IMG/VR virus record: IMGVR_UViG_3300032290_001492
Coordinates: 1-50,526 of that record
Strand: one strand, 5' to 3'
DNA length: 50,526 bases
Origin: a virus
Lineage: Duplodnaviria > Caudoviricetes
Position numbers and translations under genes: made by a program. The notes beneath the pieces were generated by a model. It was not told the origin of the DNA. It ran no database searches and saw only the letters and a program-made list of their open reading frames with translations. Positions 1 to 47,411 of the stretch are shown piece by piece. Every line of letters begins with the position of its first letter. The stretch's first letter is position 1.

Positions 1-1511
1 ACGTCGCCCGCCCCTGCAGCAGACCCGCGACCCAACAACTTGGACGCCGCCGAGACGTTCTGGATCTTGGCGTACGTCACCGCATCATTGGCGATGGTCG
101 CGGCGAACGAACCCGTGCCGGATCCAGTTACGTCTCCTGTTAGCGAAATAGTCTGGTCGCCCGTGTTGGTGCCGGAGCTGGTGCCAGAGAACGTACCGCT
201 TTGCGTGGCCAGGGTGCCGAGGCCCAGGGTCGTCCGTTGCGCCGCGGCATCCGCGTCGTCGAGCAACGCCTTGCCGGCGGCGGTGACGTCGCCGCCCATC
301 TTCGCCGTCGTGACGGCGCCGGCCGCGATTGTCGCGGCGAAGGACCCAGTGCCAGTCCCGGTGACGTCCCCGGAGAGCGAGATGGTCTGATCGCCGGTGT
401 TGGTCCCGCTCGAGGTTCCCGAGAACGTGCCGCTCTGCGTCGCCAGGGTGCCGAGGCCGAGCGTGGTCCGCTGCGCCGCGGCGTCGGCGTCGTCCAGGAG
501 GGCCTTGCCGGCTGTCGTGATGTCCTGGCCAAGCTTGGCCGTGCCGACGACGCCGTTCGCGATGGTGGTCGCGTTTGAGTTCGCGGCCGCCGTGACGTCG
601 CCGGTGAGCGCGGACCGGGTGAACGTCACCTGGCCGGCCGTGGTCCAGTTGGCCGCGACGCTGGTGCTGTCGCCGACCACCCGCTCCGCGGTCAGGGTGC
701 CGTCCGCCGTCTTGACCAGGTACTCGGCGCTGACCGGCGCTCCGCCACCACCTGCGCCGCCGAGGGCGGTGATCGCCTGTTTGATGCGGAGCGGAGAGAA
801 GGACCGGATGCCCGCCTCGGTGCCGGCCTCGGCCTCGGCTTGGCTGGCAGCCGCCTGGACCGCCTCGTACACTCCTGTGTGGAGGTGGTTGCCGGTGGCC
901 ACCTCGCCCGCGCCCGTGCCGGTGTTCTTGAGTGCCGCGTCGCCCAGGCTGGGGCGGCCGGAGAGGTCGGAGTAGGCGCCGCTGAAGCTCGAGGTGCCTG
1001 CGCCGATTACGGTGCGGGCCGCCGCGGCGTCCGCGGCGGTCAGGACCGAGCGGCCCGTGGCGGTGGAGTCAGAGATCTGGGTCGCCGGGTGCGTGTGGCT
1101 GGTGGGCGCCTTGGTGGCCAGGGCTGCAGCGATCGACGTGCCGCCCGGGTTCACGTCGGCCGAGGTGCCGTTCGTCGCCAGCTTGCCGTCCAGGGCATCC
1201 TGGAGGCCCGATACCGCGGAGATCGCGTGGGTGTGGCTAGTGGGCGCCTTGGTGGCCAGGGCGGCCGCAATCGCGGTTCCTGCGGGGTTCACGTCGGCCG
1301 CCTGGGCGGACGTCGCCAGCTTGCCGTCCAGGGCCGTCTGGAGGCCAGGGACATCGCCGAAGACGTGCGTGTGCGCGGAGACCGGGAGGTTGGCGACGGG
1401 GACGAACTTCGAGCCGTCCGTACCGAGGCTCGGCCGGACGATGTACATCAGGTCCGTCGTGAGGACTGGGGTCGAGACCTCGACCAGCTCGGTTAATTTT
1501 TTGTCGGCCAT
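1..1511 (-). CDS. Tail fibre protein, N-terminal part (runs off window start; absent from ORF track)
   Basis: ATG at 1511, 1 nt after the upstream stop; reads MADKKLTELVEVSTP...; HTH-containing repeats (SHTH..GLQxALDGK), AAAQRTTLGLG and GDVTG repeats typical of fibres; open to position 1. Confidence 0.85.
   Translation of the reverse strand, partial: MADKKLTELVEVSTPVLTTDLMYIVRPSLGTDGSKFVPVANLPVSAHTHVFGDVPGLQTALDGKLATSAQAADVNPAGTAIAAALATKAPTSHTHAISAVSGLQDALDGKLATNGTSADVNPGGTSIAAALATKAPTSHTHPATQISDSTATGRSVLTAADAAAARTVIGAGTSSFSGAYSDLSGRPSLGDAALKNTGTGAGEVATGNHLHTGVYEAVQAAASQAEAEAGTEAGIRSFSPLRIKQAITALGGAGGGGAPVSAEYLVKTADGTLTAERVVGDSTSVAANWTTAGQVTFTRSALTGDVTAAANSNATTIANGVVGTAKLGQDITTAGKALLDDADAAAQRTTLGLGTLATQSGTFSGTSSGTNTGDQTISLSGDVTGTGTGSFAATIAAGAVTTAKMGGDVTAAGKALLDDADAAAQRTTLGLGTLATQSGTFSGTSSGTNTGDQTISLTGDVTGSGTGSFAATIANDAVTYAKIQNVSAASKLLGRGSAAGAGD
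90..557. repeat. Two tandem ~234-bp (78-aa) fibre repeats
   Basis: AGKALLDDADAAAQRTTLGLGTLATQSGTFSGTSSGTNTGDQTISLxGDVT occurs twice; matching DNA at 217 and 451. Confidence 0.85.
1090..1370. repeat. Two tandem ~138-bp (46-aa) fibre repeats
   Basis: GLQxALDGKLAT...ADVNPxGTxIAAALATKAPTSHTH twice; matching DNA at 1095 and 1233. Confidence 0.85.
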
Positions 1512-1964: not shown

Positions 1965-4900
1965 TCAGTCTTGCCGCTCGTACCCGATGACGGCGCCGTT
2001 CTCGTCGCGCAGCAGCATGACCCGGCGCTTGGAGGTGCTCTTAGTCGGGCTTAGGACTTCGCGCAGCCGTCTGATCTGCTCGATGTCGAGCCCACGCGTC
2101 GTGGCGTCCTGGTCGCTCAATTCGCCGAGCTCACGGACGATGGCCCGGTAGCTGTCGATGCTTCGCTGAATGGAATCAGATACCCCTCGGCGATTTCCCG
2201 CCACCCCTCGATTCGCTCCGGCGTTATTGCCTCCAGCCCCTCCCGCTCCAGCACCCGTTCGATTTGGTTGAGCGTCAGGACTCTCACCCCCTCGGGTAAT
2301 TCGCTCACGGTCGGCCATGCGGCCCGGATTCTGCTCAAGCAGGCGTCGATTGTATTGTCGTCGAGAGTCATCGTCGGTGAATTCTTGGCGCAGGCGCATG
2401 AACGTCACCTGCGGTTCGGGAGTTGATGGATTCCAGCCCTCAGACTGCCAGAGGCGTAGGAGGTCTGCAAACTTAATGTCGGGGTTCTGACCAACCGCCT
2501 TCCAGTCGGCGTCAAAGTACTTCCGGTCGAAATTGACCCGGGCGCCGATCGGGCTGTCCACGTCATCCTCAAAGCCGAAGAAGTTGTACAGCTCGGGCAG
2601 GAACCCGGTCGGGTGCTTCGCGGAGAGGACCGCGAAGCAGTCGAGGTGCGTGGCCCCCTGCTCAATCGCCTTGGAGAGCACCGCGGGCGCCGCGACGCCT
2701 CGCGCGCCTGGCTCATTGTTGACGACCGAGGAGATGACCTTCTTGTCGCCGTCGTTTACGAGCGCGAAGTAGATGTCGGCGTTCTGCAGCTTGTAGACGG
2801 TCATATCGCCCGACTTCACCTTGGCCTTGACCATTTCCTCGGTGTACGGGGTTAGCGACGGCGCCGACTTGTTTTCGGCAAGGGCCCGAACAAACGCAGC
2901 GACGCCTACGCCACCTTCATTGACCGGGAGGTTGGTACTTGCCCAGGATCCGGTGGCTGCGGAAAGCGCCGCCCGCATCTGTTGCGCGTTCGTCGCAGTC
3001 ATGCTTTCAAGACGCGAAGCCGCCGCCGCCTTATCTCCGGTGATCTCTGCAACCGGCATCGACAGTGAGAACGACCGAGGGTCGGAAGACTCCGGCGAGT
3101 TTTGGGCCCGGCGGTTTTGAAAGAATTCCGAGAAGAGGATCTTGGAGGGGATGGGACGCTTGAACTTGCCCACGATCTGGCCTCGCACGCCGTAAGTATA
3201 GTCCGGGTGCTGCGGCGTGCCCTGCTCGCCAAGTTTCACCAGAGTGTTCTCGGGGTCGAGCTTGAGCACTAACAGTGCGTCGCCGTAGTCAACCCCGTGG
3301 AACTCGGGGTCCCGGACGGCGTCCAGAACCCGCTTGGACGGAGGGAATCCGTACTCCTCAAACTCAGCGCGTTCAAGCTGCCCCACAACAGCCTTGCGTG
3401 CGTCGAAGCTTAGTTCGCGAACCGCTACATTAAATGCCGGATCCGAAACCGAAGGCAGCTCAACTCCAAGATCCTTGATGGCGCGGTCTGCTTTCTTGAT
3501 TCCCTTCTGTGAGACCCGACCATCCTTGATGTATGCTTCAAGGGTGTTGATGAACGCCCGGACCGTCGAGCTGTTGCTCGCGTGGGTGTTCTGCGTCATC
3601 GCGACCACGACGGCGTAACCGTCGGTCTGCCGCATAAGATTCAGTTTCCGCGTGCCAATCCCCTTGCCTTCGTTCGCCCACACGACCCCAGCCTCTTTGT
3701 TGGGTGACATCAGTGGGAAGTTGGGCCCTCCGTACAGGTCAACAGGGACCACAGTCGCAGAGTCGATGCCCTGGTAGCGACCAACCGCAGTCAGGTCGGC
3801 TAGGATCGGGAATACCTTCTTCCCCTCGAGGTCTGACAGCGTCAACTGCGCGACACCCTGTACGTCCTTTGTGGGTGTGTAACCCTCGACCTCCGACTTT
3901 GGCTGCGTGGGGTCCGGACGGAACTGCAGCATCGCTTCCTTGATGTCGGCGTGAGACGTGTCGGTGCCCTCGAGACGGTCCCACACCGCGTGGTGGACGA
4001 TCGTCTGGTAGAACGGCTTGAGGTCCTCGGTCAGGAAGACTCCAAGGTTCGCCAGGCGGTCCCGGACCTCGAGCAGTATCTGTTTGTCGACGTTGAATTT
4101 CTGGTCGCCGTAATGGAGCTTGCGCTGACGGACGTCCACGGTCGGCAGGTCCCCGCGGCCCAGCATGCCAGACATGAATCCGACCTTCCCGAATGAGATG
4201 CCCTTGAAATTCTCACGGACAAATTCGGCGTATTCCTCAGTGGGCATGTTCTCGACGGCGTCGACGATGGCCTCTCCGACCTTCGACAGGTTCTCCGCCG
4301 CATTCCGCATGTATTCACGCTGGGTGTTGTAGAGCCCGAACGGCTTGAACTTCTCCAACATCGTGTTGGCGGCCGCTTCGTCGAACTCACCGCGCTCGGC
4401 CGCGTCCAGGAACGCTTGGCCTTCCTGGGTGCCCAGCAGTTTGGCAAAGGCATCCTCGGGGCGCAGCTTGTCCTCGTCGTGGGCGAGGTCCGACCAGCCG
4501 CCGCGGACCTTCTCGGTGGATAGTGCGCCCCGGTTGATGCTCGACGTGGTGATCAGGTAAGCCTTCACCACGTCCCGCGGGGTGATGCCCTTCGCACCCA
4601 TCTGCTGCATGAAGTAGCCGAACTTCTTGGCCCCATCGCCGACCTTTTCGAGCCCGAGTTGCTGGGCGACCTCGTCGATGTCCTTGGCCTCGGGCCGGTA
4701 GTTGAAGTCCGGGTTCTGCGGGTCGAACGTACCGACGTTGTCGGTGGCCGACTTGATCTGCGTGGGGTCGAAAGCGACGTAGAACGTCTGCGGCTCCGGA
4801 GTGATGGCGGCGTCGGCTGTGTGGTTCTTGATCACGATGCCGTCGAACCCAAGCTCTTTCATCTTGTCGACGAACTTGCGGTTTGTCTCGGGCGTACCTT

Positions 4901-7900
4901 GGTTTGTTTTGACCCCAGTAATGGATTCGTAGTCCCGGATGAGCTGCTCGAATCCCTTGTTACCCTCGTACACCGCCGGCTCCTGGATTGAGAGGTAGAC
5001 CTCGAGAAGTGGTCCGATGGTCTTGTTTCCCTGACTGTCGAACCCGCCGCGGAAGCTGTTGGCGTAGGATGGGTCTTCCGAGAACCACGACCCAATGCCG
5101 CCCCACTTCGAGTATTTAGCCTTCGATGGGTCGAAGACGGTGAACTCGGTCGGCGCCCCGTGGAAGACCCCCTTGGGCAGACCGTATCCGTCCACCACCT
5201 GAGATTTGCGAAAATAACGCTTGAACTCCGGAGTCTCGAGCTGCTCCGGCCGGTACATGTAGTCGGCCCGGTCTCCGTAGACCGGCTCCTTGACGAACAC
5301 GGTGTTGCCGATGCTCACGGCCTGCTTGCCGCCGACCACCGGCTCGTCGGTCCGCTTGTCGTAGAAGTACGAGTGGTCCAACGGGTCGAAGCCTACCGCC
5401 GTCCACTCGTTGATGTCTTTCGGAATTTCCCGGTCCGGGTTGAAGTTGCCCTCGACGGTCGCGATCGGGAACTTGTTCGACTCTCCCCGGCGGATTCGCT
5501 TCGCGCCGGCCTCGTTGGCCATGAACGTCGGGTTGTCGACGCTCACGATGTTGTCGTACCCGACGATCTTGCCGACCGTGTTGCCCTTAGCCTTCTGGTG
5601 GACCGCGACGACGTAGTTGCCCGTGCGTTGGAACGCGGGGATGTCGATACGCAGGCCAACCTCGGTCCCCGGTTCGAGCTGTCGAGCGGCACCGTACTTG
5701 GGCTTTTTCTCGGATGATAGGGCCTCCCTGGCGTCCTCGTCACTCGGAGGCACCGCGAACTCGACATTGGACCCGATGTCGCGGGAGACCTTGGGCGGTT
5801 CGGGCGACAGGTCCTTCACAAAAATCTCGCCCTTCGAGCCGTCTCGCATCTCGACGTAGGCGCGCTGCAGACCCTCGTTCTTACCCTTCGCGACGGTCAG
5901 AAGGTCGGAGATAAACTTAACCGGGGTGCCGCTCGGCGTGTACAGCACGTCGCCCGGGGAATAGTCGGTCCTCGGCGTGTTGCGGATGCGTTCCCGGATC
6001 TTCGATGCCATGTCGGCGCCGAAGCCCTCGAGCTGGCTGTTCTCCTCGGGCCGCAGGTTCTCGGAGACCCGGCCGTAGTCGGCCCGGAACGCCGAGCCCA
6101 AAATCTTCATCTGGTTGATCCGGTCGAGCCGGCGGGACTGGACGACGCCGAGCTTGCGGCCCTGGGCCTCGCTCATCCCCTGCAGCACCGGGTTGCGCTC
6201 ACGCTGCACTTGGGTGAGCTGACCGAACAGCGCATTGAGCGCGTCTCGCTTTTCTAGGCCGATGCCGTCGGCGCCCTCGCGCCCGGACACCGTGTTGTCG
6301 ATGTACCGGAGCAGGTCCGCCCGGGCGGCCCGCACGTCCCCGGCCCAAGGATTGAGCTGCCCCTTGCGGGCAAAGAACTCAAGGTTCCGCATCACCTTCT
6401 CCTGGCTGATCGTGTTGACTAGGATGCCGCCCGTGCGCGAGATCAGGATGCTGATCGGGGTCTCGACCCGGTTGGTCACCGCCCGCTGCTTGTACAGCCG
6501 GCTGCCGCGGGTCATCCCAGGCTGATAAACGAAGTGAGCCTCCGCCCCAGGCTTGTTCTTCAGCGTGTCGGTGATCATCGCCAGCATCTCAAGCTGGCGG
6601 GGGTTGTACTTGTTCTTGGCCTGGAGCGTCTCGAGGACGTCGGCCGGGATGTACTTGCCCGTGTAGATGGTCCGACCGTCCTTGGTCAGCGTTGCCCGTA
6701 CGCGGCCTGGCGAGATGTCCGGAGACGCATCCAGCGCCGTCAGCAAATCGTCGATGAACTCCTGCTCGCGGCGCTTGGCTTCCCGGGCGGTCAGGAACTT
6801 CCGCTTCCCGGTCTCCGGATCGATGTCCACGTCGAAGCCGGACGAGACCAGGTCCATCAGCTCCGGGTTGGACGCCAGCTCCTGCTCCGAGTAGATGGTC
6901 TCGATCTCCGAGAACGACTGCACCTGTCCGGCCCGCTCCGACAGGTTCATCAGGTCGTACTGCTTGACGACGTCGCGGACCGCCTTCCGCATCTCCGGAC
7001 TCATCTCCGTCTCGAACAGCCCGGTGCCCGAGGCGAATTGGCCGTCCTCACGGAACACGGCGCCGGTCGCCATAAGCATGCGCTGAAGGACGCCCGAATC
7101 CATGACCATCGGGGACCTGGCGAACTGTTCGATGATCGGGACTAGCGGGCGGGCGTTGCGGCGGAGGGCGCCGATGCCGGCGAACTCACCCGACACGTTT
7201 TGCGCCAGGAGCGAGGAGACGCCAGCCTCGGCGATGACCTCGTGCAGGATCAGCTCGGGGTTAGCCTCGTACCGGGTGGTGTCCTTGCCCGCAGCCCGGA
7301 GGGCCTGCAGGTACTCATCGCGGAACTTGGCAAAGTCGGCCTTGAACTGGACCGAGCCGTCCTTGATCTCGGTGAAGATGCCGGCGGAGTTGGTCGCCGC
7401 GTCGCCAAAGAACCGGCGGCGGATGTCTGCGGCGATGTCGGGGTTCCGGGCGATGTGGTGCGTGACCTCATGGCTCATTAGCGGCACCAGGGGGATCTTG
7501 GAGTCCAGGTCGATCGTCGCGACTCCGGTGCCGTCGGGGTTGACCACGTAGCTGCCGCCAGACCCCTTTTGCCGGACGAAGTCGATCACCAGGTTGGGGT
7601 TGGTCGCCTCGAACGTGGCAGCGGCGAGCTGCACGCCGGCCGGAGCCTCGTCGAACATGCGTTGCTGCATCCCGGTGCGACGGGAGCGGGCCTCGGCGAT
7701 GTCGCCGATCTGGCGGGCGCGAACCGCGGACGCGGACCGCTCGAGCTGGATCGTACGCAGGCCACCACCGAAGAAACCGCCGATAAAGCCCTCACCGGCG
7801 CCCTCCGCCGCGTCGCCCTGGAGCGTCCCGAACACGGCGCCGACCGCAGCGCCCTTGAACGCGCCATCGGTGGCCTCGGCTACTCCGCGGCCGATGCGGG

Positions 7901-9335
7901 AGATGAACTCGACGCGGTTCGCCTGCTGCGCTGCAAGGCGGGTCCAGCCGTCGGTCTCCTTAGCCAGGCGCTGGAAATATGGCGTCGACGACTCAGCGGT
8001 CCGCATCAGCTTGCCGGCCGTGGACACGTTCTCGCCTAGGTCCGCCACCCACTCGGCGGTCCGTTCGACGAAGCCAGGAGACACGCCCGTGGCCCGCTGC
8101 ATCATTTCGTCGCCCAGTTCCGCGGCCTCTTTGCTCTCGCCCAGGGCGCTCACCCGGCGATCACGCAACCAATCGACCGCGGCCTGGGTCTTCCGACCCG
8201 CCGTCGTGGCGGCCTCTCCGGCAAACTGGACCGCGGCGCCGGCAACCTGCTGGGAGACCGGGCGGGTGTTAGTAGCCAGGGCGGCCTCGTCGGCCCGCTT
8301 GGCCAGGTCCTGCTGGATGTTCTCGATGATGGCCTTCTGCTCGGCCATCTTGGCCGCATTCGCCGCGACGGCGTTCGTCTTCTCCAGGCTGTCGGCCATC
8401 GCATCGATCGCGATGCGCTCCTCCTGGAGGGCGGCGATCTTGCGGCCGGCCTCGGTCAGGGCGCCGAAGTTGGGGACCTTGTTGCCTGCCGCGGCGGCCG
8501 CAGCTCGGTAGAACCGGGCCTCCAGGGACCCGGCGTACTTGGTCGTGTTCTCGATCAGGTCCGCCACCTTGTCCGCGCCGACGCTGGCGGCCGCCTTCGC
8601 GGCGTTGCGGGCGCCGGCTGCGGTGACGGTGCGGCCCAGCTTCGCGCCCGCGGCGGCACCGCCGGCAAACGCCAGGTCGCCGACCTCGGCGAGGCCCGCC
8701 GCAGCCTTCATCAGCTCTTCGCGCTGCTCGGGCGCGTAGGCGCTCTGTAGGTCCATGCCACCGACCACGTAGTCGGCGATCATCAGCGCGTCCTCGGTGA
8801 TGTTGCTGATGTCGCGAAGCGTCCGGTCCCGGGCCTGCCGCACGGCGGCCACCTTGCGGCGGTTCTCGGGCGTGTCTTTGTACCCGACCGACATCTTGGT
8901 TCCGACTTCCTTGAACGCGCCCTTGACCGTCTCTCCGATGACGGGGTAGGTGCCGGCAAACATGGCGCCGGCCTGGACGGTCAGAGCGGTCTGCCGGCGG
9001 ATGGAATCCTTGAGGCCCTGGCCGTCGCCGACGATGGCGCTGCCGACGCCAGCCATGAGGTTCTGTCCGGTCATACTGGCGCCCGTGCCCAGATTGCTGA
9101 CCAGTTCGCCGGCTGCCTCGCCCGCCCGCTCCAGGAAACCCGGAGCGTTGGGGTCGCTGGCCTCCGCTTCTAGGACCGCCAGGTAGGCGTCCAGGTTCTC
9201 AGGCGCCAGGATATCCAGTTCGACCGGAGCCGGCTTGGTCAGCTCGGGAGCCAGCACCGCCAACTCTTCATCGGAGACCGGGATCGGGTCAGGACCGAGG
9301 TTGAGCTTCTGCGGGTTTTGGCTTGGTGCGTTCAT
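1965..9335 (-). CDS. Giant DNA-ejection/polyvalent protein (zincin-like peptidase, SH3-like, ART-PolyVal, HhH glycosylase-like, GNAT-like)
   Basis: 2456 aa, third gene of the ejection cluster; HEVTH at 7458-7472; VVD..G.P..VFHG...FDPTQIKSATDNVGTFDP; FKGISFGK...PTVD; GATHLDCF...LYNFFGF. Confidence 0.85.
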   Translation of the reverse strand: MNAPSQNPQKLNLGPDPIPVSDEELAVLAPELTKPAPVELDILAPENLDAYLAVLEAEASDPNAPGFLERAGEAAGELVSNLGTGASMTGQNLMAGVGSAIVGDGQGLKDSIRRQTALTVQAGAMFAGTYPVIGETVKGAFKEVGTKMSVGYKDTPENRRKVAAVRQARDRTLRDISNITEDALMIADYVVGGMDLQSAYAPEQREELMKAAAGLAEVGDLAFAGGAAAGAKLGRTVTAAGARNAAKAAASVGADKVADLIENTTKYAGSLEARFYRAAAAAAGNKVPNFGALTEAGRKIAALQEERIAIDAMADSLEKTNAVAANAAKMAEQKAIIENIQQDLAKRADEAALATNTRPVSQQVAGAAVQFAGEAATTAGRKTQAAVDWLRDRRVSALGESKEAAELGDEMMQRATGVSPGFVERTAEWVADLGENVSTAGKLMRTAESSTPYFQRLAKETDGWTRLAAQQANRVEFISRIGRGVAEATDGAFKGAAVGAVFGTLQGDAAEGAGEGFIGGFFGGGLRTIQLERSASAVRARQIGDIAEARSRRTGMQQRMFDEAPAGVQLAAATFEATNPNLVIDFVRQKGSGGSYVVNPDGTGVATIDLDSKIPLVPLMSHEVTHHIARNPDIAADIRRRFFGDAATNSAGIFTEIKDGSVQFKADFAKFRDEYLQALRAAGKDTTRYEANPELILHEVIAEAGVSSLLAQNVSGEFAGIGALRRNARPLVPIIEQFARSPMVMDSGVLQRMLMATGAVFREDGQFASGTGLFETEMSPEMRKAVRDVVKQYDLMNLSERAGQVQSFSEIETIYSEQELASNPELMDLVSSGFDVDIDPETGKRKFLTAREAKRREQEFIDDLLTALDASPDISPGRVRATLTKDGRTIYTGKYIPADVLETLQAKNKYNPRQLEMLAMITDTLKNKPGAEAHFVYQPGMTRGSRLYKQRAVTNRVETPISILISRTGGILVNTISQEKVMRNLEFFARKGQLNPWAGDVRAARADLLRYIDNTVSGREGADGIGLEKRDALNALFGQLTQVQRERNPVLQGMSEAQGRKLGVVQSRRLDRINQMKILGSAFRADYGRVSENLRPEENSQLEGFGADMASKIRERIRNTPRTDYSPGDVLYTPSGTPVKFISDLLTVAKGKNEGLQRAYVEMRDGSKGEIFVKDLSPEPPKVSRDIGSNVEFAVPPSDEDAREALSSEKKPKYGAARQLEPGTEVGLRIDIPAFQRTGNYVVAVHQKAKGNTVGKIVGYDNIVSVDNPTFMANEAGAKRIRRGESNKFPIATVEGNFNPDREIPKDINEWTAVGFDPLDHSYFYDKRTDEPVVGGKQAVSIGNTVFVKEPVYGDRADYMYRPEQLETPEFKRYFRKSQVVDGYGLPKGVFHGAPTEFTVFDPSKAKYSKWGGIGSWFSEDPSYANSFRGGFDSQGNKTIGPLLEVYLSIQEPAVYEGNKGFEQLIRDYESITGVKTNQGTPETNRKFVDKMKELGFDGIVIKNHTADAAITPEPQTFYVAFDPTQIKSATDNVGTFDPQNPDFNYRPEAKDIDEVAQQLGLEKVGDGAKKFGYFMQQMGAKGITPRDVVKAYLITTSSINRGALSTEKVRGGWSDLAHDEDKLRPEDAFAKLLGTQEGQAFLDAAERGEFDEAAANTMLEKFKPFGLYNTQREYMRNAAENLSKVGEAIVDAVENMPTEEYAEFVRENFKGISFGKVGFMSGMLGRGDLPTVDVRQRKLHYGDQKFNVDKQILLEVRDRLANLGVFLTEDLKPFYQTIVHHAVWDRLEGTDTSHADIKEAMLQFRPDPTQPKSEVEGYTPTKDVQGVAQLTLSDLEGKKVFPILADLTAVGRYQGIDSATVVPVDLYGGPNFPLMSPNKEAGVVWANEGKGIGTRKLNLMRQTDGYAVVVAMTQNTHASNSSTVRAFINTLEAYIKDGRVSQKGIKKADRAIKDLGVELPSVSDPAFNVAVRELSFDARKAVVGQLERAEFEEYGFPPSKRVLDAVRDPEFHGVDYGDALLVLKLDPENTLVKLGEQGTPQHPDYTYGVRGQIVGKFKRPIPSKILFSEFFQNRRAQNSPESSDPRSFSLSMPVAEITGDKAAAASRLESMTATNAQQMRAALSAATGSWASTNLPVNEGGVGVAAFVRALAENKSAPSLTPYTEEMVKAKVKSGDMTVYKLQNADIYFALVNDGDKKVISSVVNNEPGARGVAAPAVLSKAIEQGATHLDCFAVLSAKHPTGFLPELYNFFGFEDDVDSPIGARVNFDRKYFDADWKAVGQNPDIKFADLLRLWQSEGWNPSTPEPQVTFMRLRQEFTDDDSRRQYNRRLLEQNPGRMADRERITRGGESPDAQPNRTGAGAGGAGGNNAGANRGVAGNRRGVSDSIQRSIDSYRAIVRELGELSDQDATTRGLDIEQIRRLREVLSPTKSTSKRRVMLLRDENGAVIGYERQD
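2117..2371 (-). CDS. Nested out-of-frame small protein (candidate immunity protein)
   Basis: 84 aa, helical and acidic; third-position GC about 75% versus about 45% for the host frame over the same bases (hand count). Confidence 0.6.
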   Translation of the reverse strand: MTLDDNTIDACLSRIRAAWPTVSELPEGVRVLTLNQIERVLEREGLEAITPERIEGWREIAEGYLIPFSEASTATGPSSVSSAN

Positions 9336-10800
9336 CCGGGATTCTGAAGACTTTCTTGGTTTTAGGGTCCTGCACCAGGATCGTTCCTGGGGTCGTAGGG
9401 TCCGCTTTCAGTACTTTGTAGTTGCCGCCTTGATACGCCACGGTGTCGGAGGGTGTCGAGGGGCCGTCGGGCGAGATGCGTCGACTGCGGACGGAATCGC
9501 GATTCCAATAACGCGGGTCGACCTCGAGTCCGTTCTGCCGCGCCATAGTCGCCGTCTTGTTGAACAGTGCCTCACTGGAGGCACGATACCCAGCCTTGGC
9601 TCGAGCTCTGAAGAACGGGACCAAGGTCTTTGCGTCCGTCGGGTCTGCGGCAAACTTCTCAAGCATCGCCCACTCCGCCGGGGTCACTGCGCCAGGGCCG
9701 ACGATCGAGATTCGGTTCGTCGACTGGATCAGCTTGGCGAGCACTTCAGCCCGGCCGGCAAGTTCCGGACTAGTGATTTTCTTGGGATCCGCCTCGATCT
9801 CCTTGGCAATGTCTTCCAACTCGTAGATGAGGCCCATCGACGTTTCAGAGGCCGCGGATTCCTCGGCGATCTTGGCGGCAACGATGGCGCTGCGAGCTTT
9901 GCCGGCAAACCCAGGAACAGTCAGCGCGGTGTTGTCCTGCTCGAATTTCTGCTGCTGCATGCGCTGGTCATCAGCGGCGCGCTTGTCGGCCTCCCGCTTG
10001 CGGGCGAATTCGGTCATCGTCTGCACCGCCTTCTGGTACTCGGCCGAGAAGGTCGACCCAGGGACACGCAGGACGCTCTGGACTGCCGGATCCTGGAGGA
10101 TCGCCTCGACCTTGCTTACGTCGCCAGACACTCGGGCCACGTTCAGCAGCGACATCGCTTGTGCCTCCATCTGAGGGTCGGCCTTGCCCGTGGGGACAAA
10201 GAACATTGACGGAGGGGCGCCAGGGACTGGGCCAGGGCGCGTGATGGTCCGCAGCGCCTGCCCCGGGAACATCATCTGCGCCTCGGCCCGATTGGTGGCG
10301 TACTGGTTCGTCGAGATATAGTCCTGCAGCTTGCTGTTCTCGTTGGCGTTGATGAGCGCCTGGGTGCTCGACATCTGCTTACCCAGAATCTCCATCACCT
10401 GCGGATCCTTGGCGAACCGAGCGGCCTGCGTCTCGAGCTGGGTCAACAGCCGGCGTTGTTCAAACGGATCGGTCGTACCTTGAATAACCCGCAACGCCTC
10501 GTCGATATTCGGAGCCACGCGGTTGTACTCGCTGCGGACATCGGCCGCCTCACGCACCGTGCGCTCCGTCTCGCGGAACTTCATCTCCTGCATCGACAGT
10601 TCCGCCCGCATTTTCTGTTGCGTCAGGTCGGTGGTCGCCAGGTCTGCGGCATGTTTCTGTTGCCGCATCTCGAAATCAGTTTCGGCCATCTTGCGACGCT
10701 GCGCCCGCTCCATCAGCGAAGACGCGGCCTCCGCGGACTGAAGGGCGAATGTGGGGAGGGCGAGGCCGGCGTTGCCGGGCTGGAATTCAGCGAATGGCAT
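9289..10800 (-). CDS. Internal virion/ejection protein
   Basis: 503 aa, helical, Q/A/E-rich; lies between pilot-like and giant ejection genes. Confidence 0.7.
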   Translation of the reverse strand: MPFAEFQPGNAGLALPTFALQSAEAASSLMERAQRRKMAETDFEMRQQKHAADLATTDLTQQKMRAELSMQEMKFRETERTVREAADVRSEYNRVAPNIDEALRVIQGTTDPFEQRRLLTQLETQAARFAKDPQVMEILGKQMSSTQALINANENSKLQDYISTNQYATNRAEAQMMFPGQALRTITRPGPVPGAPPSMFFVPTGKADPQMEAQAMSLLNVARVSGDVSKVEAILQDPAVQSVLRVPGSTFSAEYQKAVQTMTEFARKREADKRAADDQRMQQQKFEQDNTALTVPGFAGKARSAIVAAKIAEESAASETSMGLIYELEDIAKEIEADPKKITSPELAGRAEVLAKLIQSTNRISIVGPGAVTPAEWAMLEKFAADPTDAKTLVPFFRARAKAGYRASSEALFNKTATMARQNGLEVDPRYWNRDSVRSRRISPDGPSTPSDTVAYQGGNYKVLKADPTTPGTILVQDPKTKKVFRIPDERTKPKPAEAQPRS

Positions 10801-10803
10801 GGT

Positions 10804-11658
10804 TTAAGGGCCCTTGAACGGAGTCGCGTTAGCCATCGGCTGGTAGTTCTGCAGCAAACCCATGCCCGAGGATCCGGTCTTGGGGGCCGCACCAACTTTG
10901 CCCTGCGCGCCCTGGCCAATACCCGCCGAGGCGAAATTCATGGCGTTCGTCACCGCACCGGCGAGCAGCATTCGGTTGTAGTTGCTCGCAGCAGCCTCGG
11001 CATTGTAGCCGGCCTGCTGCACGTTGTACGCCATCTGGTTGTTCTGCGACTGGGCACTGATGGCGGCATTGGGGTCGACCATCATGGCCATCGGGCTCAT
11101 CGGGTTCACCCGCGGCGTCATCCCGAACACGGTCGACAGCGTGTTGAGCGCCCGCGTGCGGCTGGCGTTCTTCCAGTCCATCAAATTGAACCCGAAATCC
11201 TTGACCAGGCTGAAAGAGTTGAAGTTGCCGGCGGTGCCGCGGGACACGCCCTTCTCAGCCGCGAAGCGGGAGATCTGCTGTTGGACCTCGGGCGGGAGCG
11301 TGTTCTGGCTGTTGAGGTCCTCGTTGACCTGGGCCATCATCCGCCTTTGCGCTGCTCCGAACCCGGGCATCGCCGTCTCCAGCATCCTGCTGGCCTCAGC
11401 CTGGTTGAACGTGTTGGTCTGCGACGAGAGCTGCTGCGCGCTCGCCATGTTCTGCAGGTTGCCGGAGATGGCCTGCTTTTGGGCCTCGACCACGTCGACC
11501 GGCTTGTACTCTGCCTGTTTCGGGGCCTTCTGCTTACCGAGTAGTGAGGAGCCGGCGCCGATGACCCCACCGATCACGGCGCCCCAAGGGCCGCCGATCG
11601 ACGCGCCAGCCATCGCACCCTGGGCAGCTCCTGCGAAAACTCCAGATCCGTTGGCCAT
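10804..11658 (-). CDS. DNA pilot/ejection protein
   Basis: 284 aa; Gly/Ala hydrophobic N-terminus (GAAQGAMAGASIGGPWGAVIGGVIG), Q/N/A-rich body. Confidence 0.75.
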   Translation of the reverse strand: MANGSGVFAGAAQGAMAGASIGGPWGAVIGGVIGAGSSLLGKQKAPKQAEYKPVDVVEAQKQAISGNLQNMASAQQLSSQTNTFNQAEASRMLETAMPGFGAAQRRMMAQVNEDLNSQNTLPPEVQQQISRFAAEKGVSRGTAGNFNSFSLVKDFGFNLMDWKNASRTRALNTLSTVFGMTPRVNPMSPMAMMVDPNAAISAQSQNNQMAYNVQQAGYNAEAAASNYNRMLLAGAVTNAMNFASAGIGQGAQGKVGAAPKTGSSGMGLLQNYQPMANATPFKGP

Positions 11659-12513: not shown

Positions 12514-12554
12514 GTTTTATAGGATCAGGAGGTGCCCGCCAAGGGGCTGACGGG
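12514..12554 (-). promoter_or_regulatory. Late promoter (box CCCGTCAGCCCC, TTGGCG-N17-TAAAAC)
   Basis: Matches shared box and 17-nt spacing; 13 nt before ATG 12500. Confidence 0.55.
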
Positions 12555-14243
12555 GTGGGAATACCAGAAGGTCGGTGACGTGGCCCAGGAGGGGACGGTG
12601 ACGACGTCGGTCTGGCTGTTGGGAGCCTGGTTGTCGGCGTACGGCATCATCGACACCCGCTCCTGGAAGAGCTGGAGGTAATCGAGGCGGGCGAACCCGT
12701 CCCACTCCACGCGGACCTGGAATCCGGAGGCGCAGGACACCAGGCGATTGGTCGACGGGTCGACGTACTCGACCGGGGTCCTGGTGGACAGCAGGCTGCG
12801 ATGTTGCGGCACCACTCGGCCCCACGCCTGCGCGGGAGGGGCATCGACCGCGAACTGGTCCCATTGGACCCAGTGGGGATACTTGTCCGGGCGGAACAGA
12901 ACACGGACAACCAGGCCCGATCGGATGTTCGAGAACTGGACGTCGCACCGGCGCACGTTTTTGAGCACGCCAGGGGAGTCGCCGAACAGCATTCGGGTCT
13001 CGACCACTTGGGTTGGCTCGTCGCCGAGCTGCACCGAATTCTCCGGCAGCACCTCGTAGATCGCGTTGGCCCCGGCCAGGTCGCGGCCTAGGATAAAGCA
13101 CCGTTCGGTCCCGTGGACTCGGCCGGTGAACATCTGAGCGATGATGACGCCGTCCCATTCGCCGTCGTACACCGGAGGAGACTTCTGCCCTCGGCCCGAA
13201 ATGCTGTCGTAATTCAGCGCCAGGATGCCCTGCGAGAGCGACCGCGGTCCGTAGATGAATGGACTGTGCGTGACCAGCAGCCGGTTGTCGAAACAGACCA
13301 CGCTGGCGTCCTGGAGCAGGAATTGGCTGTCGTAGTCGAACCGATGCCGCACCTCGACGGAGAGCGGTGCGAGTCCCGGCGCACTGTAGTCTGCCGTCGA
13401 GGTGCGGATCGATCGGAGCCCGTCAGAGCTCCGAAAATAAAGGTCCTGGTTGACCGCAACCACGGCGTTGCCGCCGGTAATCCCGCGCGTCGGCAGCAGT
13501 ACCGTCTGAAAGCCCACCTCGCTCCAGAGGTCTCGCTCGGTGATCTGAGTCTTGAGAGTGAAGACCGAATCGTCGCAGCCGACTACCAGGGCGCCCTGGC
13601 CGGAGCCGGTGTCGATGACCGGAAGGGACGCCAGAGCCCGGACCTGGGACGGGAAGGTGAAGTCCCCGCCGCCGAGCAGGTTGTATGTCTCGGTGAACTT
13701 GAGCTCGCTCTGGTGCTCGGGCTGCCGGATGTCGCCCAGACGCACGTCCTTGCCGGTGCCGACCACCACCGCCAGCCGGCCGTTGCTGAACGCCATCGCC
13801 CGGCCGACGGGCACCTCCTTGCTTCCGGCCCGGCGGAAGTCGGCGCCGTCGTAGAGGTAAGGCCGCGACTGACCGTCCTGCATGACCAGGGTGCCGGCGG
13901 TCTCGCAGAACCAGACGCGAGGCTGCTTGGACGAATTGCGGTTGGTGTTCGACGTCTTCTCGACCGAGGTCCACTTCCGCGGATCCACCGCGTAGACCCG
14001 GCCGGAGACCGCGACCATCAGTTCCGACGTGACCGGGAACACTGCGGCGCCCTGCATCAGGCCGGCCGGGAGATTCAGCCTCTTGACGATGCGGGGGCGC
14101 GAGGAGACGCGGCCTCCGCGCACAGAGACGTTGCGGAGCAGCGATGCCTGCTGCTCCGGGAGCAGCTCCGGCTCACGGCCGCGGTTCATTCCCTCGGCCA
14201 CGGTGGCCTGGGTGTCTGCCAGCCATGTCTGGACTGCTGGCAT
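12525..14243 (-). CDS. Tail tubular/nozzle (stabilisation) protein
   Basis: 572 aa, beta-rich, follows adaptor gene as in podovirus tails. Confidence 0.7.
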   Translation of the reverse strand: MPAVQTWLADTQATVAEGMNRGREPELLPEQQASLLRNVSVRGGRVSSRPRIVKRLNLPAGLMQGAAVFPVTSELMVAVSGRVYAVDPRKWTSVEKTSNTNRNSSKQPRVWFCETAGTLVMQDGQSRPYLYDGADFRRAGSKEVPVGRAMAFSNGRLAVVVGTGKDVRLGDIRQPEHQSELKFTETYNLLGGGDFTFPSQVRALASLPVIDTGSGQGALVVGCDDSVFTLKTQITERDLWSEVGFQTVLLPTRGITGGNAVVAVNQDLYFRSSDGLRSIRTSTADYSAPGLAPLSVEVRHRFDYDSQFLLQDASVVCFDNRLLVTHSPFIYGPRSLSQGILALNYDSISGRGQKSPPVYDGEWDGVIIAQMFTGRVHGTERCFILGRDLAGANAIYEVLPENSVQLGDEPTQVVETRMLFGDSPGVLKNVRRCDVQFSNIRSGLVVRVLFRPDKYPHWVQWDQFAVDAPPAQAWGRVVPQHRSLLSTRTPVEYVDPSTNRLVSCASGFQVRVEWDGFARLDYLQLFQERVSMMPYADNQAPNSQTDVVTVPSWATSPTFWYSHPVSPLAGTS

Positions 14244-21814: not shown

Positions 21815-22456
21815 TCAAGGCGTTGTATCCGAGGCAGAACTACCCTGCAAGGGGCTGCCGGGTCTCTGCCAGCACCAGGGCGGGAACACCGTGTCCGGAG
21901 AATTGCCGGAAAGGACGACGTTCAGCGGCAGATTGACCTTCGCCTGGAGGCTGCACCCGCAAGCCATGCAGACCGAGATCCCGGGGTGCTTCCGGCCGGC
22001 TGGGATCGTCGCTTCGATCGTTTTGTAGACCGCCGAGCAGGAGCAGAGGGAGGAGGGCTTATTGAACGGGCAGCCACGGCAGACGGATGCACGCGCGTGG
22101 GCCTCCTCGGGCGGGCAGAAGGGGGCCTTGCCTGCCGCCACCTCGGCGAGAGATGCCACCACCGCCCGGCCCAGGGACAGCGCCATTCCGGTGGTCAGGC
22201 TGGCAGTCAGGTCGGCTACCGGGACATGGGTCTCGCCAGGCTCAGGCTCGCACCAGGTCGTGTCCAGGCCGGCGCAGATCTGCCGCTGGACGTCGAGTTT
22301 GGTGTTCTCGGGGCTCAGGTTCTTGTACTTCCGGTGCGGGATAATCTGGGCAACCAGGCCCTCGAACGTGTCAGAGTCGAAGCGCACCGCAGTTTCCGGC
22401 TGCACGTAGCGCCAGCCGCCCGGAGGGACATCGCGGAAGGATTTGATGAGGGCCAT
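21815..22456 (-). CDS. Cys-rich putative metal-binding protein
   Basis: 213 aa from ATG 22456 (TGATG overlap with TerL); RASVCRGCP, CSC, CMACGCSLQAK, CW. Confidence 0.7.
   Translation of the reverse strand: MALIKSFRDVPPGGWRYVQPETAVRFDSDTFEGLVAQIIPHRKYKNLSPENTKLDVQRQICAGLDTTWCEPEPGETHVPVADLTASLTTGMALSLGRAVVASLAEVAAGKAPFCPPEEAHARASVCRGCPFNKPSSLCSCSAVYKTIEATIPAGRKHPGISVCMACGCSLQAKVNLPLNVVLSGNSPDTVFPPWCWQRPGSPLQGSSASDTTP
21822..21862 (-). promoter_or_regulatory. Late promoter (box CCCGGCAGCCCC, TTGCAG-N17-TACAAC)
   Basis: Shared box; 11 nt before portal ATG. Confidence 0.6.
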
Positions 22457-24201
22457 CAGGCGGTCGCGTACTCGCGCTCCGGGTTGGTGACGTTGCTGTA
22501 CTTCACGGCCCGCTTGAGCATGCGGGTGTCGCGGGATCCGACGGAACCGGCAGCCAGCGAACCGGCGACGCCACCCTTCCGGCGGAGGAGCTCGATGAGC
22601 ATGACGAACGCATCGGCCTCGTCCGGAGAGTAGCCGAGCCGCTCCTTCATCTCCTTCTTGGTCTCGATGCGGATTTTCTTGTCCTTCACCGTCTCGTACT
22701 GCCGGGCAACGAGCTGATCCCGCAGCAGTTTGAAGTCCTCGTTCAACCCGCCCACCAGTCCCTCCTCCATCCAGGCCCGGCCGGCCCACCAGAGCTCGGA
22801 AACGAAGCGGTCGAACAGCTCGGTGCAGTTTTCCAGGTCGCTTTTCTTCAGCCGGCGCTCGGTAGCGCCTCCGCCGAAGTTGCAGCGACTGATTTCCGGC
22901 GACCATTCCTTCTCCAGGATGGCAGCGACGCCGCGGCCAGCGCCCGTGACGTCCAGGATGAAGTTTTCGGGCTTCACCTCGTACTTGGCGCAGATCCGTT
23001 TGACCTCGTTGGCGATCAGGTAGTCGAGTGGCTCCGATTTGTCGGTCATCGAGACCTTGATCGGCATCGAAACGACCATGTTGAGCGCGAAAGCCGAGTT
23101 ATTGGCGCCCCCGTACTCGGCGATCGCCAGCGCACACTGGTCTCCGCCCTCAAACGCGGGATCTAGGGCCGCCACGCGCACCGGAGGCATCTGGTATTCG
23201 AGCTTTTTCTCGGCCTTCGCCAGGATCGACGACGGAAAGATGACGCCAAACAGCCCCTCGGGGGCAAACCAGCCGCGAACGAACGTCCACCACCTCGGTG
23301 AGCCCTCGCCAAAAGCCTTTGCTACGCTGTCCAGGTAGTCCTGGCGGATGAGGAACGGGAAAACGGTCTTGCCGTACTTGATGTTGGCGCTCTTGAGACC
23401 GTCCAACCTGATGCAAATGCCGCCTCGCTTGGTTTCCCAGAACTGATCGACGTCGGGATCGATGTGGCCCCAGCCGTTTTGGGGTTCGCACCAGGTTCCG
23501 AACTCCGAATAGCGCCGCGTCGGGTTGGCGAGCTGCGCCATCCGGAAGTCGGGGTCGGTCATCAAGTTCGCGGCCGCCTCGAAAATCGCCGAAGGAGTGC
23601 CCTGCGCTTCGTCGATGACGACGTACCGTCGCTTTCGCGAGTGCGTGCCCTGGATTTTTTCGACCGCATCCTGACCACGGTCCGTGGCAATACCCTCAAT
23701 GACATACTTGTCCTCCTTCGTGCCGGCCGGACGAATCGTCATGTCGTGGTTCCGGACGTCGAACATCACGCCGCCCAGAGTGCCTGGCGCAATTTGAGCG
23801 GTTCGGATCGCCGACACCGTGTCGGCCCAGAGCCGCTTGCGAAGACCTGGTAGGTGCGTCGACGTCAGCGTGATGATCGAGTTTTCCGCGTCCGCGATGT
23901 AGGACGCGGCGGCGATGTGGCCGAACGTGTGCGTCTTGGCCGCCGACGCGTGCCCGATGATTGAGACGACCCGGTACTTGCACCAGGCCCAGGTAAGCAG
24001 CTCGAGGTCGTCGCGCCACCGCGGGACGCCAGGTTCCACCTCTCCAGCGTAGAGCTGAGGCCAGAGGGCGATCATCGCGTTGCGTAAGTGCCCCTGCTGC
24101 CCCAGACCGCCTTTCTCCGGCGTGCGCCCATGCGCGAAGCAGCAGAGCTCGATCATCGCATCCGACCAGCCATCCGGGAAGTTGGCCTCGTATTTCCTCA
24201 A
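22456..24201 (-). CDS. terL: Terminase large subunit
   Basis: Walker A GHASAAKT, Walker B VVIDEA, LANP, nuclease [10 protein letters not shown] and SPDEADA; probable TTG start overlapping the upstream TGA. Confidence 0.92.
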
Positions 24202-26228
24202 GTCGGCAGCGTCTCGAAGAAGCGGACGTAGACCGTCCTGTTGTTGACCCGCATCGCCAGATAACTGCCTCCGGCTGGGGCCGGGTCTTCGCCGCACACG
24301 ATGTGGCTACTCCCGTTAGGGTGGACGTCGAAGTTGCTGCTGCTGAACCTGCCGTTCGACACGTTGCACAGCCCGTTCGTGTCGACGTGCAGACGGTCTG
24401 CGCCAGAACGGTCCCGGATCCGTACGTGGCCTGACGCCACGTTGGCGGGGGTGATGAGAACGGCGCCGGCAAACGACGGGACCGTCGGGTACTCTGAGCC
24501 AAACACGTCAAGCTGGCCGCCCTGGCCCGAGCCGTCGCCTGCGCCGCCGTTGACGCGCACGATGCCCTGCTTCCAGGTCGACGAAACCGTACACTGGTCA
24601 TTCAGCTCGATCTTGCCGCCGAGAAACCGCGGCGTGGTGAGCTGCACATTGGCCGCAATCCGGTCGCCGGTGATCGAGTTGGCCACGATCTTGTCGGCGC
24701 CGACCGTGCCATTGACCAGCAGGTTGCCGTTGATCACCGCTGTGACCGCGATCCAATTGCTGCCGTCCCAGAATCGAGTCTGAGCAAAGTTGACCCCGTT
24801 GGAGATCGTCACCTGGTCCAGCAAAACCTTGGTCAGGCCGCGGGCAGTGATTGCAGCTTCAGCCGTGGCGTCTACCCATGCCGAGCCGAGTGCGTAGAAC
24901 TGACTTGAGCCTCGCGATCCGGGAGTTCCGGAAGAACCAGCCGGTCCTTGCGGACCCGTATTCCCGGTAGAGCCCTGCGCTCCACGCTCCAGGAACAGGA
25001 CCCAGGCGCCGGCGCTGTTCTTGACGTACGAGTTTCCGTCGGTCGTGTTCTTGTAGATCGAATTGACGGCGTAGCCCGCAGAGGGTGCTGAAGCGAATGA
25101 CCCGATGTAGGTGATCGGCGGAGTCGACGCGTTGTTCGCGACGTCGCCGAGTGGGACGCCGTTGACGACCAGCGTCGAGTTGAGCGTCAGGGTGTCGCCC
25201 ACCAGGCTGAACGGGACCTTGCTCCCGTTCGCCGAGTAGATCTTGAACGCATCAGCCGCAAACGCGACTTCGCTCGTCGGGCTGATCAGGACGCGGGAGA
25301 CGCCGCCGCCCAGCAGGGTCGCCACCGCCGCAGCGCCCGTGCCACCGCCTCCGGTCAGGACCACCTTGGGTGCCACGGCATAGCCGCTGCCCGCCGCGGT
25401 CACCGTGATCGCAGTAATAGCGCCGCCCGAAATCGTCGCCACTGCGGCGGCCCCGCCGCCCGGCGTGCCGGGATGGTTCTCGAACGTGACCGTCGGCGCG
25501 GAGGTGTAGCCGCTGCCGGGCGAGAGCCCGTCGGCCGCCGTCACTGTCATTCCGGCGACCTGGCCGCCGGCGGAGACCCGCAGCGCGTACTGTCCGCTCA
25601 CTCGCCCGTCCGCCAGGGCGCGGGCCGCGGCTTCCTGGTTGACCTTTGAGGTAGCGTCGTTGGCCGCCGCGGTAATGGCCTCGGACTTCGACGAGTCCGC
25701 GTAGCCTTTGGTCGCGTAGGTCGTTTCCACCGTGTTCAGCCGGGCCTCCGCGTCTCCGACGTCGGCCACCAGGGTGTTGGTCGTCTGCGCGAGCGCCGAG
25801 GTCGCGTTTGCCTGGGCGGTAAGCTGCTGCGTGATCTGCGCCTCGCTGTTCGCGAACCTGGCCGCAAGCGTGAGCGTCTGCTGCGCCAGGGACTCGGTCG
25901 TCGACGCCGTGACCAGACGGATCTCCTCGATGCTTGCGGCGCTGGTGTTTTGACCGTCGTCGACCTTGGCCTCCAGAAGCGTCACCTGCTCGGCGAGCGC
26001 GAACCCCGGCTCGACCTGGGTCCGCAGGATCATGCCGGCGATCGCCGAAGAGTTGACCGTCTTACCATCGAGCTGCGCCGTGAGCTTCGACGCAGCCGCC
26101 AGGATCTTTTTGTCCGCGGCCGCGGTCGCCTTATCCAGGGCAGAACGAAGTTCGTCCAGAGCCGCCTGACGCGCCTCGGCTTCCCGCCTGATGCGGGACA
26201 GCAGCAGTTCGTCAGGAATCGTCGACAT
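24198..26228 (-). CDS. Tail fibre/host-specificity protein
   Basis: 676 aa; coiled-coil N-terminus, QYALRV..GQVAGM...FAADAFKI (J-like), GSGY.SAPTV repeats, collagen-like stretch. Confidence 0.75.
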
Positions 26229-28217: not shown

Positions 28218-28258
28218 AGCGTATCGATTTGGTTAGGACGAAACAAGGGTTGAGCCAG
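28218..28258 (-). promoter_or_regulatory. Putative promoter (CTGGCTCAACCC, TTGTTT-N17-TACGCT), probably leaderless
   Basis: 17-nt spacing, ATG 6 nt after the -10; resembles the TerS promoter. Confidence 0.5.
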
Positions 28259-47397: not shown

Positions 47398-47411
47398 TGG
47401 CGAATTGGAAC

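Follow-up and report, generated by a model that had tools for sequence, protein, structure and literature searches.

A short peptide motif recurs at module junctions of a giant, probably virion-internal protein from an uncultured podophage-like virus

What marks the borders between the parts of a single phage polypeptide that joins a conserved core to a long series of exchangeable modules? The question is raised by the IMG/VR virus record IMGVR_UViG_3300032290_001492 (Caudoviricetes), of which positions 1 to 50,526 were analysed here (the window; a virus contig of 50.5 kb whose completeness is rated at about 93%). On its minus strand, between 1965 and 9335, one reading frame stays open for 2,456 codons, with a third-position G+C content as high as in real genes of the same genome. 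A preliminary description of this open reading frame (ORF) and its product, P0001, pointed to the motifs HEVTH and HEVIAE and to four copies of [LYF]RP[ED] that were thought to delimit modules. All of these coordinates are exact; a fifth copy, LRPE at 4455–4466, was not in that list.

A peptide motif at module borders

All five RP[ED] tripeptides of P0001 are preceded by L, Y or F, where its composition leads to an expectation of 1.13 RP[ED] and 0.16 [LYF]RP[ED]. The first 1,093 residues contain none, so that all five lie in the C-terminal 1,363 residues, and among the remaining 37 proteins predicted for the phage (12,604 amino acids) there is a single Phi-RP[ED], with 0.75 expected. The first copy ends the conserved core, and the core-end motif comes back at the first four boundaries in the form [Q/M/N]-[Y/F]-R-P-[E/D]. 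That the motif stands at module boundaries, as had been proposed, is supported by alignment breakpoints within six residues of it and by low-confidence linkers in the AlphaFold2 (AF2) model, in which the four junction copies lie in segments with a predicted local distance difference test (pLDDT) score below 50 (1092–1122, 1357–1370, 1530–1551 and 1800–1814). Copies inside predicted folds had been named as evidence against the proposal, and one such copy exists: the fifth, LRPEDAF at 1624, sits in a helical domain, with which it is conserved, at a pLDDT of about 77. Junction 4 is kept as MLQFRPD in the homologues P0002–P0005, P0007, P0009, P0014 and P0015.

In the DNA, the five copies read CTG CGG CCC GAG, TAC CGG CCG GAG, TAC CGG CCC GAG, CTG CGC CCC GAG and TTC CGT CCG GAC; they differ at synonymous sites and their flanks are unrelated. 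The consensus YWS CGK CCS GAS suggested earlier fits the four copies then listed but not the fifth, which has CGC. A DNA-level repeat or recombination joint, also suggested at that stage, is rejected because of the synonymous differences and unrelated flanks. Conservation is at the peptide level, not at the DNA level.

Across the family the motif takes the form [N/Q]-Phi-x-P-[E/D/G], with the core ending in N-Phi-x-P-[E/D/G], here NLRPE. In a 97-row alignment of the core end, P is present in 93 rows, N (at -3) in 79 and L, Y, F or M at the Phi position in 81; at position x, 28 rows have R, 27 M, 20 L and 6 S. A permissive pattern located the core end in 123 relatives, with a few assignments that look doubtful; 21 of the 123 stop at most 50 residues after the motif. 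For 103 representative relatives, an unbiased count of tripeptides in the C-terminal extensions puts FMP (65 observed, 4.2 expected), MPE (75 and 7.3) and YMP (45 and 3.3) at the top of the over-represented ones, with FRP (38 versus 10.9) and RPE (54 versus 19.1) also raised; the top 15 listed for the corresponding cores include none of these five. Since by these counts most relatives use [FY]MP, RP[ED] is one clade's version of a wider motif; the earlier [LYF]RP[ED] holds in this clade and is too narrow for the family. For the phage's own clade, the consensus of 102 distinct contexts is [A/I/L/F]-[Q57/N21]-[F41/Y30/L22/M9]-R-P-[E52/D35].

Relatives exchange modules at the motif, as the preliminary description had anticipated, and this is seen in homologue alignments and in swapped neighbours. 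Close relatives with 65–97% identity in the core carry differing module sets behind it; five of them align with P0001 up to 1097, and many other alignments end or start at 1361–1367 and 1546–1549. Among 199 informative ends of BLASTP high-scoring segment pairs (HSPs) in residues 1080–2416, 115 fall at most six residues from a motif end, in windows that make up about 5% of the region: 71 at 1097, 27 at 1364, 16 at 1549, one at 1808 and none at 1627. At junction 2 (Y1361), 21 HSP starts also lie within six residues. At least five unrelated sequences are found behind one and the same ADP-ribosyltransferase (ART) end, ...NPDIQYRPE, and the gp82-like end, ...QFQYRPE, behaves likewise. Swapping runs both ways across the motif, one upstream module being found with various downstream modules and the converse.

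On the sequences compared, residue x goes with the resident protein and not with the module. Behind core ends with R (28 proteins) there are 45 Phi-RP versus 4 Phi-MP, behind core ends with M (39 proteins) 85 Phi-MP versus 15 Phi-RP, and in the L and S classes the class's own residue is the commonest downstream. The gp82-like module (53–62% identity) that ends in ...YMYRPE here ends elsewhere in ...FAFMPS, ...ARFKPS or ...FRYMPQ. An 84% identical ART module in P0023, a protein that gave no match to this core in the homologue alignments, ends in ...DIRY without RP.

The conserved core and its zincin-like domain

The conserved core comprises the N-terminal 1,097 residues of P0001. Its residues 540–1100 match 399 representative clusters of a 1.84-billion-protein library at E ≤ 1e-3, 198 of them at E ≤ 1e-10, and judged by sequence the core is a family of its own, 1,100 amino acids long with a defined C-terminal end motif. 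Searches with tblastn of the whole protein, the core and P0110 against 50,697 deposited phage genomes gave module-level matches only, with no member of the core family among them, and the putative portal of this phage had no match in the same genomes. A pattern scan of IMG/VR with the single protein returned no relative, and a profile search of the PDB with the core found none either, just M48 at E 0.058 over 25 positions.

The N-terminal half had been expected to hold a zincin-type HExxH...E domain, and invariant residues, an AF2 model and structural neighbours all point to one. H622, E623 and E699 do not vary in either alignment (97 and 64 relatives), and H626 is likewise invariant in the smaller one, with a conservation of at least 90% in the larger; E699 lies within HEVIAE, residues 698–703 (7227–7244). 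Of the collected proteins, 59 of 66 and 136 of 146 have one HExxH, and those without one are mostly fragments, with P0184 and P0211 of full length. In the AF2 model of the core (residues 540–1120, pLDDT 81), a helix and a sheet of three strands precede the HExxH helix, and an insert separates this from a helix bearing E699 (in model numbering, helix 27–39, strands 43–48, 55–59 and 65–70, helix 77–90 with HExxH and helix 154–175 with E699). The same layout is described for polyvalent-protein metallopeptidases (PMC5512222). At junction 1 the pLDDT falls in this model too.

The best structural neighbours of residues 540–803 (VIA-align over the full library with model residues 1–264, Z 5.2–7.1) are the catalytic domain of anthrax lethal factor (Z 7.1, 147 aligned), the C-terminal metalloprotease domain of ArdC (Z 6.9, 131 aligned), PprI/IrrE (Z 6.2), the Pro-Pro endopeptidases (PPEPs; 5.2–5.8, with PPEP-3 at 5.8) and CapP (5.6). 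With M34-type and regulator-cleaving zincins the region shares 8–17% identity at middling Z, with no sequence-level membership, and their specificity is not transferable. As in metallopeptidases of the gluzincin type, it has an HExxH on a helix, a glutamate on a later helix and the fold, and lies outside the curated peptidase models; residues ~566–803 are a zincin by signature and predicted fold, not a curated-family member.

The second half of the core is predicted to hold a WYL/Sm-like small beta-barrel. Model residues 311–555 align over about 90 residues with BrxR (Z 7.5), PafBC (7.4), CapW (7.0–7.1) and DriD (6.2–6.4), values that are middling for a common fold. The barrel adjoins a zincin whose neighbours include CapP and PprI, peptidases that cut such regulators. 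The modelled pairing could hint at a ligand- or DNA-gated protease; that the barrel would serve as a sensor of the CapP/CapW or PprI type, restraining the protease until DNA ejection, is an analogy to which we give little credence.

Readings of the junction motif

With a likelihood that we place just below even, the motifs serve as sites at which a polyvalent ejection protein carried in the virion is processed by the zincin built into it. P0001 would be packaged inside the capsid and ejected into the host, its own zincin would recognise the motifs and cut at them, and the products would be the core and separate modules, set free inside the capsid or once the protein has been ejected. The activity of the zincin, cutting at the motif, the bond, the timing, the packaging and the roles of the modules are what we infer here. 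Processing by the zincin is the most economical reading because an invariant peptidase lies in the same chain, and it is favoured because a six-residue consensus stands in flexible linkers and is absent from the core interior, and because one motif position changes with the clade of the core. That embedded zincins process the polyvalent proteins which carry them is an established hypothesis (PMC5512222). PPEPs are described as cutting between adjacent prolines, so a proline at the scissile bond would be compatible with a zincin fold, which we take as a lead only. Co-folding of a 46-residue junction peptide (1340–1385) with the core (540–1090) scored 0.00 and is used as evidence neither way. 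Extended to the family, [N/Q]-Phi-x-P-[E/D] would be the self-processing code of an unnamed podophage ejection-polyprotein superfamily (at least 399 clusters, 50% identity), with the zincin cutting every junction and x (R, M, L or S) as a specificity determinant that co-evolves with the protease of the clade; we advance this wider claim tentatively, as possible and somewhat less than probable.

Several points weigh against processing by the zincin. Phage N4 vRNAP, ArdC and TraC1 carry such peptidases and travel unprocessed (PMC5512222). Only a degenerate DLSPE stands at the boundary near 1180, and no copy occurs in the final 648 residues, which comprise two domains or more, so the motif marks most junctions and not all. 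The Z values for the core (5–7.5) fall in a middling range, Foldseek with the core model gives nothing at E ≤ 1e-3, and Pfam on residues 540–1100, including the polyvalent-protein metallopeptidase model, gives no peptidase family at E ≤ 5; the zincin is for these reasons assigned by signature and fold only. In the core tree, one or two deep clade splits largely account for the R and M classes, which leaves just one or two phylogenetically independent contrasts, so the concordance of x in 42 of 44 cases is without statistical weight alone. Because the classes are clades, many core columns, 938, 958 and 979 among them, differ between the two, and covariation with a specificity pocket was rejected as evidence, the class-specific columns being many and the independent pairs one or two. 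A WRP about 27 residues into a stand-alone relative of module 4 means that part of the motif could belong to the downstream module.

The motif might instead stay uncut, as an inter-domain element that caps modules or docks a common partner and so orders packing or threading. Several zincin-bearing polyvalent proteins travel uncut (PMC5512222), the motif is the natural C-terminal end of core-only proteins, which argues for a role without a downstream module, and a common co-evolving partner would also account for the clade-specific x. The beta-barrel of the core, another internal virion protein or the interior of the capsid or portal are candidate partners. We consider such an element unlikely, although it deserves real weight, since the AF2 model has the junction copies in low-confidence linkers instead of packed against domains, and a six-residue consensus beside an invariant peptidase is simpler as a substrate site. 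Cutting by a different protease, of the host or an unrecognised phage maturation enzyme, with the zincin acting on host proteins or peptidoglycan, seems improbable to us, although it too keeps real weight. It would have a parallel in T4, whose prohead protease trims proteins of the head interior, an ADP-ribosyltransferase among them, at a short motif. A cell-wall role has also been suggested for the metallopeptidase of phi24B gp47, a polyvalent virion protein of 2,811 amino acids (10.64898/2026.04.10.717836). However, Pfam and PHROG scans spanning 33 of the 37 other predicted proteins, with library and E cut-off varying by scan (0.001, 0.01 or 5), found no protease family, on which ground a prohead or other phage-encoded protease was rejected, and an x that follows the core clade is hard to square with a host enzyme.

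The exchange of modules exactly at the motif would also be expected if the motif were the footprint of cassette insertion, either a recombination joint or a duplicated core end, without a function in the protein; as the motif is the ancestral core end, appending a module together with a copy of that end would spread it. Against this, the five DNA copies differ synonymously without flanking identity, and 12 bases are too short for homologous recombination. The peptide is moreover kept across proteins at most 25% identical, and shared modules have switched x to that of the resident protein; this argues for selection on the peptide and makes a mere footprint improbable, if still of real weight. 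The motif was defined after looking at the sequence, so it could in principle be a chance pattern picked after the fact. This is scarcely credible when an unbiased tripeptide count in 103 other proteins puts the motif variants on top, the within-genome control is at expectation, and breakpoints and linkers coincide with the motif.

Processing by the zincin can now be approached through the motif itself, as the 2017 prediction of zincin-cut polyvalent proteins becomes directly testable through a clade-specific junction motif. If the reading is true, the motif delimits the mature injected proteins (ART, GNAT-like and many unnamed modules) in many uncultured phages, the mature effector set of hundreds of such phages would be readable directly from sequence, and it would be explained how phages exchange effector cassettes yet keep them processable.

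Related systems, modules and genome setting

Short peptides that border a constant region and exchangeable C-terminal cassettes are known from polymorphic toxins, namely VENN in CdiA and DPxGL in Rhs, the Rhs motif being also a self-cleavage site. Those proteins have one border each, whereas here the motif stands at up to six successive borders, and their aspartyl or Rhs-cage mechanism differs from the pairing of a virion-type phage protein with a zincin, so that the likeness is an analogy only. P0001 is a new member of the polyvalent-protein class, with zincin-like, ART-PolyVal, L5-gp82-like and GNAT domains in one viral polypeptide; the earlier classification, made on ART and GNAT-like modules as disparate domains of one phage protein, stands. 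Like the polyvalent proteins of Iyer, Burroughs, Anand, de Souza and Aravind (2017, PMC5512222), it combines a zincin-like peptidase with disparate enzyme modules in a phage gene beside virion genes, and it shares with them the ART-PolyVal model of that class and a GNAT domain. Unlike the hubs of that class, it has no LPD, MuF or ArdC-N domain that Pfam could find. Polyvalent proteins have been compared with viral polyproteins that embed proteases (PMC5512222), which likewise have several enzymes in one chain, short consensus sites between them and a protease in cis; P0001 differs in being the product of a DNA phage, in its metalloprotease and in being probably delivered as protein with the genome instead of being made in the cell after entry.

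Like the podovirus ejection proteins T7 gp14–16, cyanophage A4 gp26–29 and phi24B gp47, P0001 is very large and encoded after head and tail-tube genes; unlike them, its core has no sequence similarity to any solved chain in PDB searches. No lytic transglycosylase or M23 domain was seen. The nearest experimental precedent for packaging is phi24B gp47, which carries a metallopeptidase, is present in virions by mass spectrometry and is proposed to be an ejection protein (10.64898/2026.04.10.717836). Part of chain B in the pre-ejectosome of cyanophage A4, an assembly inside the capsid whose structure is solved (PMC12002296), is structurally like the ART module here (VIA-align Z 8.1, 130 aligned, one row). 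A junction motif is not described for the A4 pre-ejectosome or phi24B gp47 in the parts of those two sources covered, and the covered parts of PMC5512222, whose supplements might hold more, name no cleavage or junction motif. With the same proviso, the literature searched defines no cleavage site for polyvalent proteins, and the junction motif with its clade-specific variants appears to be new.

Behind the core, the AF2 model of residues 1092–2290 (20-row alignment) has a mean pLDDT of 66, and Foldseek with it gives nothing at E ≤ 1e-3; Pfam finds just ART-PolyVal and Phage_L5_gp82 above threshold on P0001. Module 1, missing from P0002, is the part once called SH3-like and is a small beta domain in the model. 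The Phage_L5_gp82 match of module 2 covers residues 1248–1344 (1.3e-6; E 4.8e-8 on the fragment), and this module is common to many other polyvalent proteins. For module 3, the suggested ART-PolyVal-like domain is confirmed by PF18760 over residues 1382–1537 (7.7e-23, 82.3 bits versus a cut-off of 31.2, model positions 1–140 of 140). FHGAP is visible at its start, and Foldseek relates its fold to the catalytic domains of PARP/tankyrase and exotoxin A with probabilities of 0.9–0.99, at whole-model E values of 0.03–0.09. An HhH-like domain had been suggested for 1550–1808; this region is helical in the AF2 model and has no Pfam match better than E 0.05, and the suggestion is not upheld.

Residues 1809–2140 gave no usable match in the ESM Atlas. 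The GNAT-like domain expected near the C terminus was recovered as a fold at 2124–2274, with VIA-align Z values of 7.5–9.2 over 116–137 aligned residues (49 of 50 rows GNAT or GNAT-like), Foldseek matches to 3mgd (probability 0.98) and 2pdo (0.90) and PHROG 2563 at E 9e-4; no Pfam family matched 1809–2230 or 2231–2456 beyond noise. HSPs of P0002–P0005, P0007, P0009 and P0014–P0016 extend to query positions 2428–2456. Coordinates are collected in the table.

Features of the giant ORF, its product P0001 and the surrounding genome (positions in the window)
Feature	Positions	Strand	Residues	Basis or remark
Whole ORF	1965–9335	-		P0001, polyvalent, probably virion-internal (ejection) protein
N-terminal region	7656–9335	-	1–560	Ala-rich, mostly helical, conserved in family
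Weak glycine-zipper match	7755–7880	-	486–527	Pfam Gly-zipper_OmpA, E 6.8e-4, under gathering score
Zincin-like metallopeptidase domain	6927–7640	-	~566–803	AF2 model, pLDDT 81; VIA-align
HEVTH (H622, E623, H626)	7458–7472	-	622–626	Candidate zinc-binding/catalytic motif
E699 within HEVIAE	7239–7241	-	699	Candidate third zinc ligand; invariant column, in model helix
Second core half with WYL/Sm-like small beta-barrel	6057–6788	-	~850–1093	VIA-align
Junction 1, LRPE	6045–6056	-	1094–1097	End of conserved core
Junction 2, YRPE	5244–5255	-	1361–1364	
Junction 3, YRPE	4689–4700	-	1546–1549	
Junction 4, FRPD	3912–3923	-	1805–1808	
Fifth copy, LRPE	4455–4466	-	1624–1627	Inside folded domain, non-junction
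Module 1, small beta domain	5799–6044	-	1098–1179	Ends in degenerate DLSPE (1175–1179); AF2, HSPs
Module 2, all-beta with Phage_L5_gp82 match	5256–5798	-	1180–1360	Pfam PF25735
Module 3, ART-PolyVal ADP-ribosyltransferase domain	4701–5243	-	1365–1545	Pfam PF18760
Module 4, helical domain	3924–4688	-	1550–1804	Without Pfam match; holds internal LRPEDAF (1624–1630)
Module 5, alpha/beta region	2967–3911	-	1809–2123	Without internal junction motif
Module 6, GNAT-fold domain	2514–2966	-	2124–2274	VIA-align, Foldseek, PHROG
Gly/Asn/Arg-rich low-complexity stretch and conserved C-terminal tail	1968–2513	-	2275–2456	
Fibre-like/tail-like gene	3–1511			Downstream of giant ORF
Internal-virion-protein-like gene	10804–11658	Same as giant ORF		Weak similarity
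Putative portal		Same as giant ORF		693 aa
TerL (large terminase)	22456–24297	Same as giant ORF		Pfam/PHROG scans
Tail-like or fibre-like gene	24198–26228			
1155-aa ORF	28233–31700	-		Without Pfam or PHROG match
Podophage GP4 fibre I protein gp80	31709–32104	-		131 aa; Pfam PF23140, E 4.3e-38
Tyrosine-integrase-like gene	46198–47439	-		PHROG 1, E 9e-35

Stand-alone relatives of modules occur in other phages. An 898-residue protein (MW202675.1, 5989–8685) starts with a 36%-identity relative of module 4 and keeps WAWRPL about 27 residues from its N terminus and an internal IRPEGA; its gene sits just after portal-like and M15 peptidase genes, and its annotation as a type I restriction enzyme looks doubtful. 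In Sulfitobacter phage phiGT1, a module of P0110 has a stand-alone relative in the 387-residue phiGT1_5, whose gene follows the portal. According to a depositor's note on phiGT1_16 (12957–13442), this is where podoviruses encode a 'head assembly' or internal virion protein with an acetyltransferase fold, so the GNAT-like module here might correspond to such a structural or assembly protein instead of being an effector.

The same-strand neighbours of the giant ORF, among them tail-like and fibre-like genes and the fibre-like gene downstream, are virion genes, and the ORF lies in a virion module near tail and internal-protein genes. Its position, already noted in the preliminary description as that of a podovirus ejection protein, does fit such a protein in this podophage-like genome, and by gene context P0001 is probably packaged. 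Its ATG at 9335 overlaps the end of the upstream 503-residue gene (9289–10800) by 47 bases, and close homologues are called from the same start. A 394-residue protein encoded between the putative portal and capsid genes resembles a coiled-coil scaffold in weak matches. The sole other Phi-RP[ED] of the phage proteome, VLFRPDKYPH at residue 450 of a 572-residue virion-module protein (12525–14243, minus strand), is at chance level; should the motif prove to be cut, that protein would come into question as a second substrate.

The other arm of the genome encodes a helicase, an exonuclease, a DNA polymerase and an integrase, and the tyrosine-integrase-like gene suggests a temperate lifestyle. The homologue P0009 is labelled as coming from an Ilumatobacteraceae metagenome-assembled genome, a possible pointer to an actinobacterial host. 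The clearest tie of the contig to a described podophage group is the PF23140 match. The adjacent 1155-residue ORF may encode a repetitive or fibre-like protein; AT skew there is unusually high (0.24–0.27 at 28–32 kb), and long ORFs lie on the opposite strand too.

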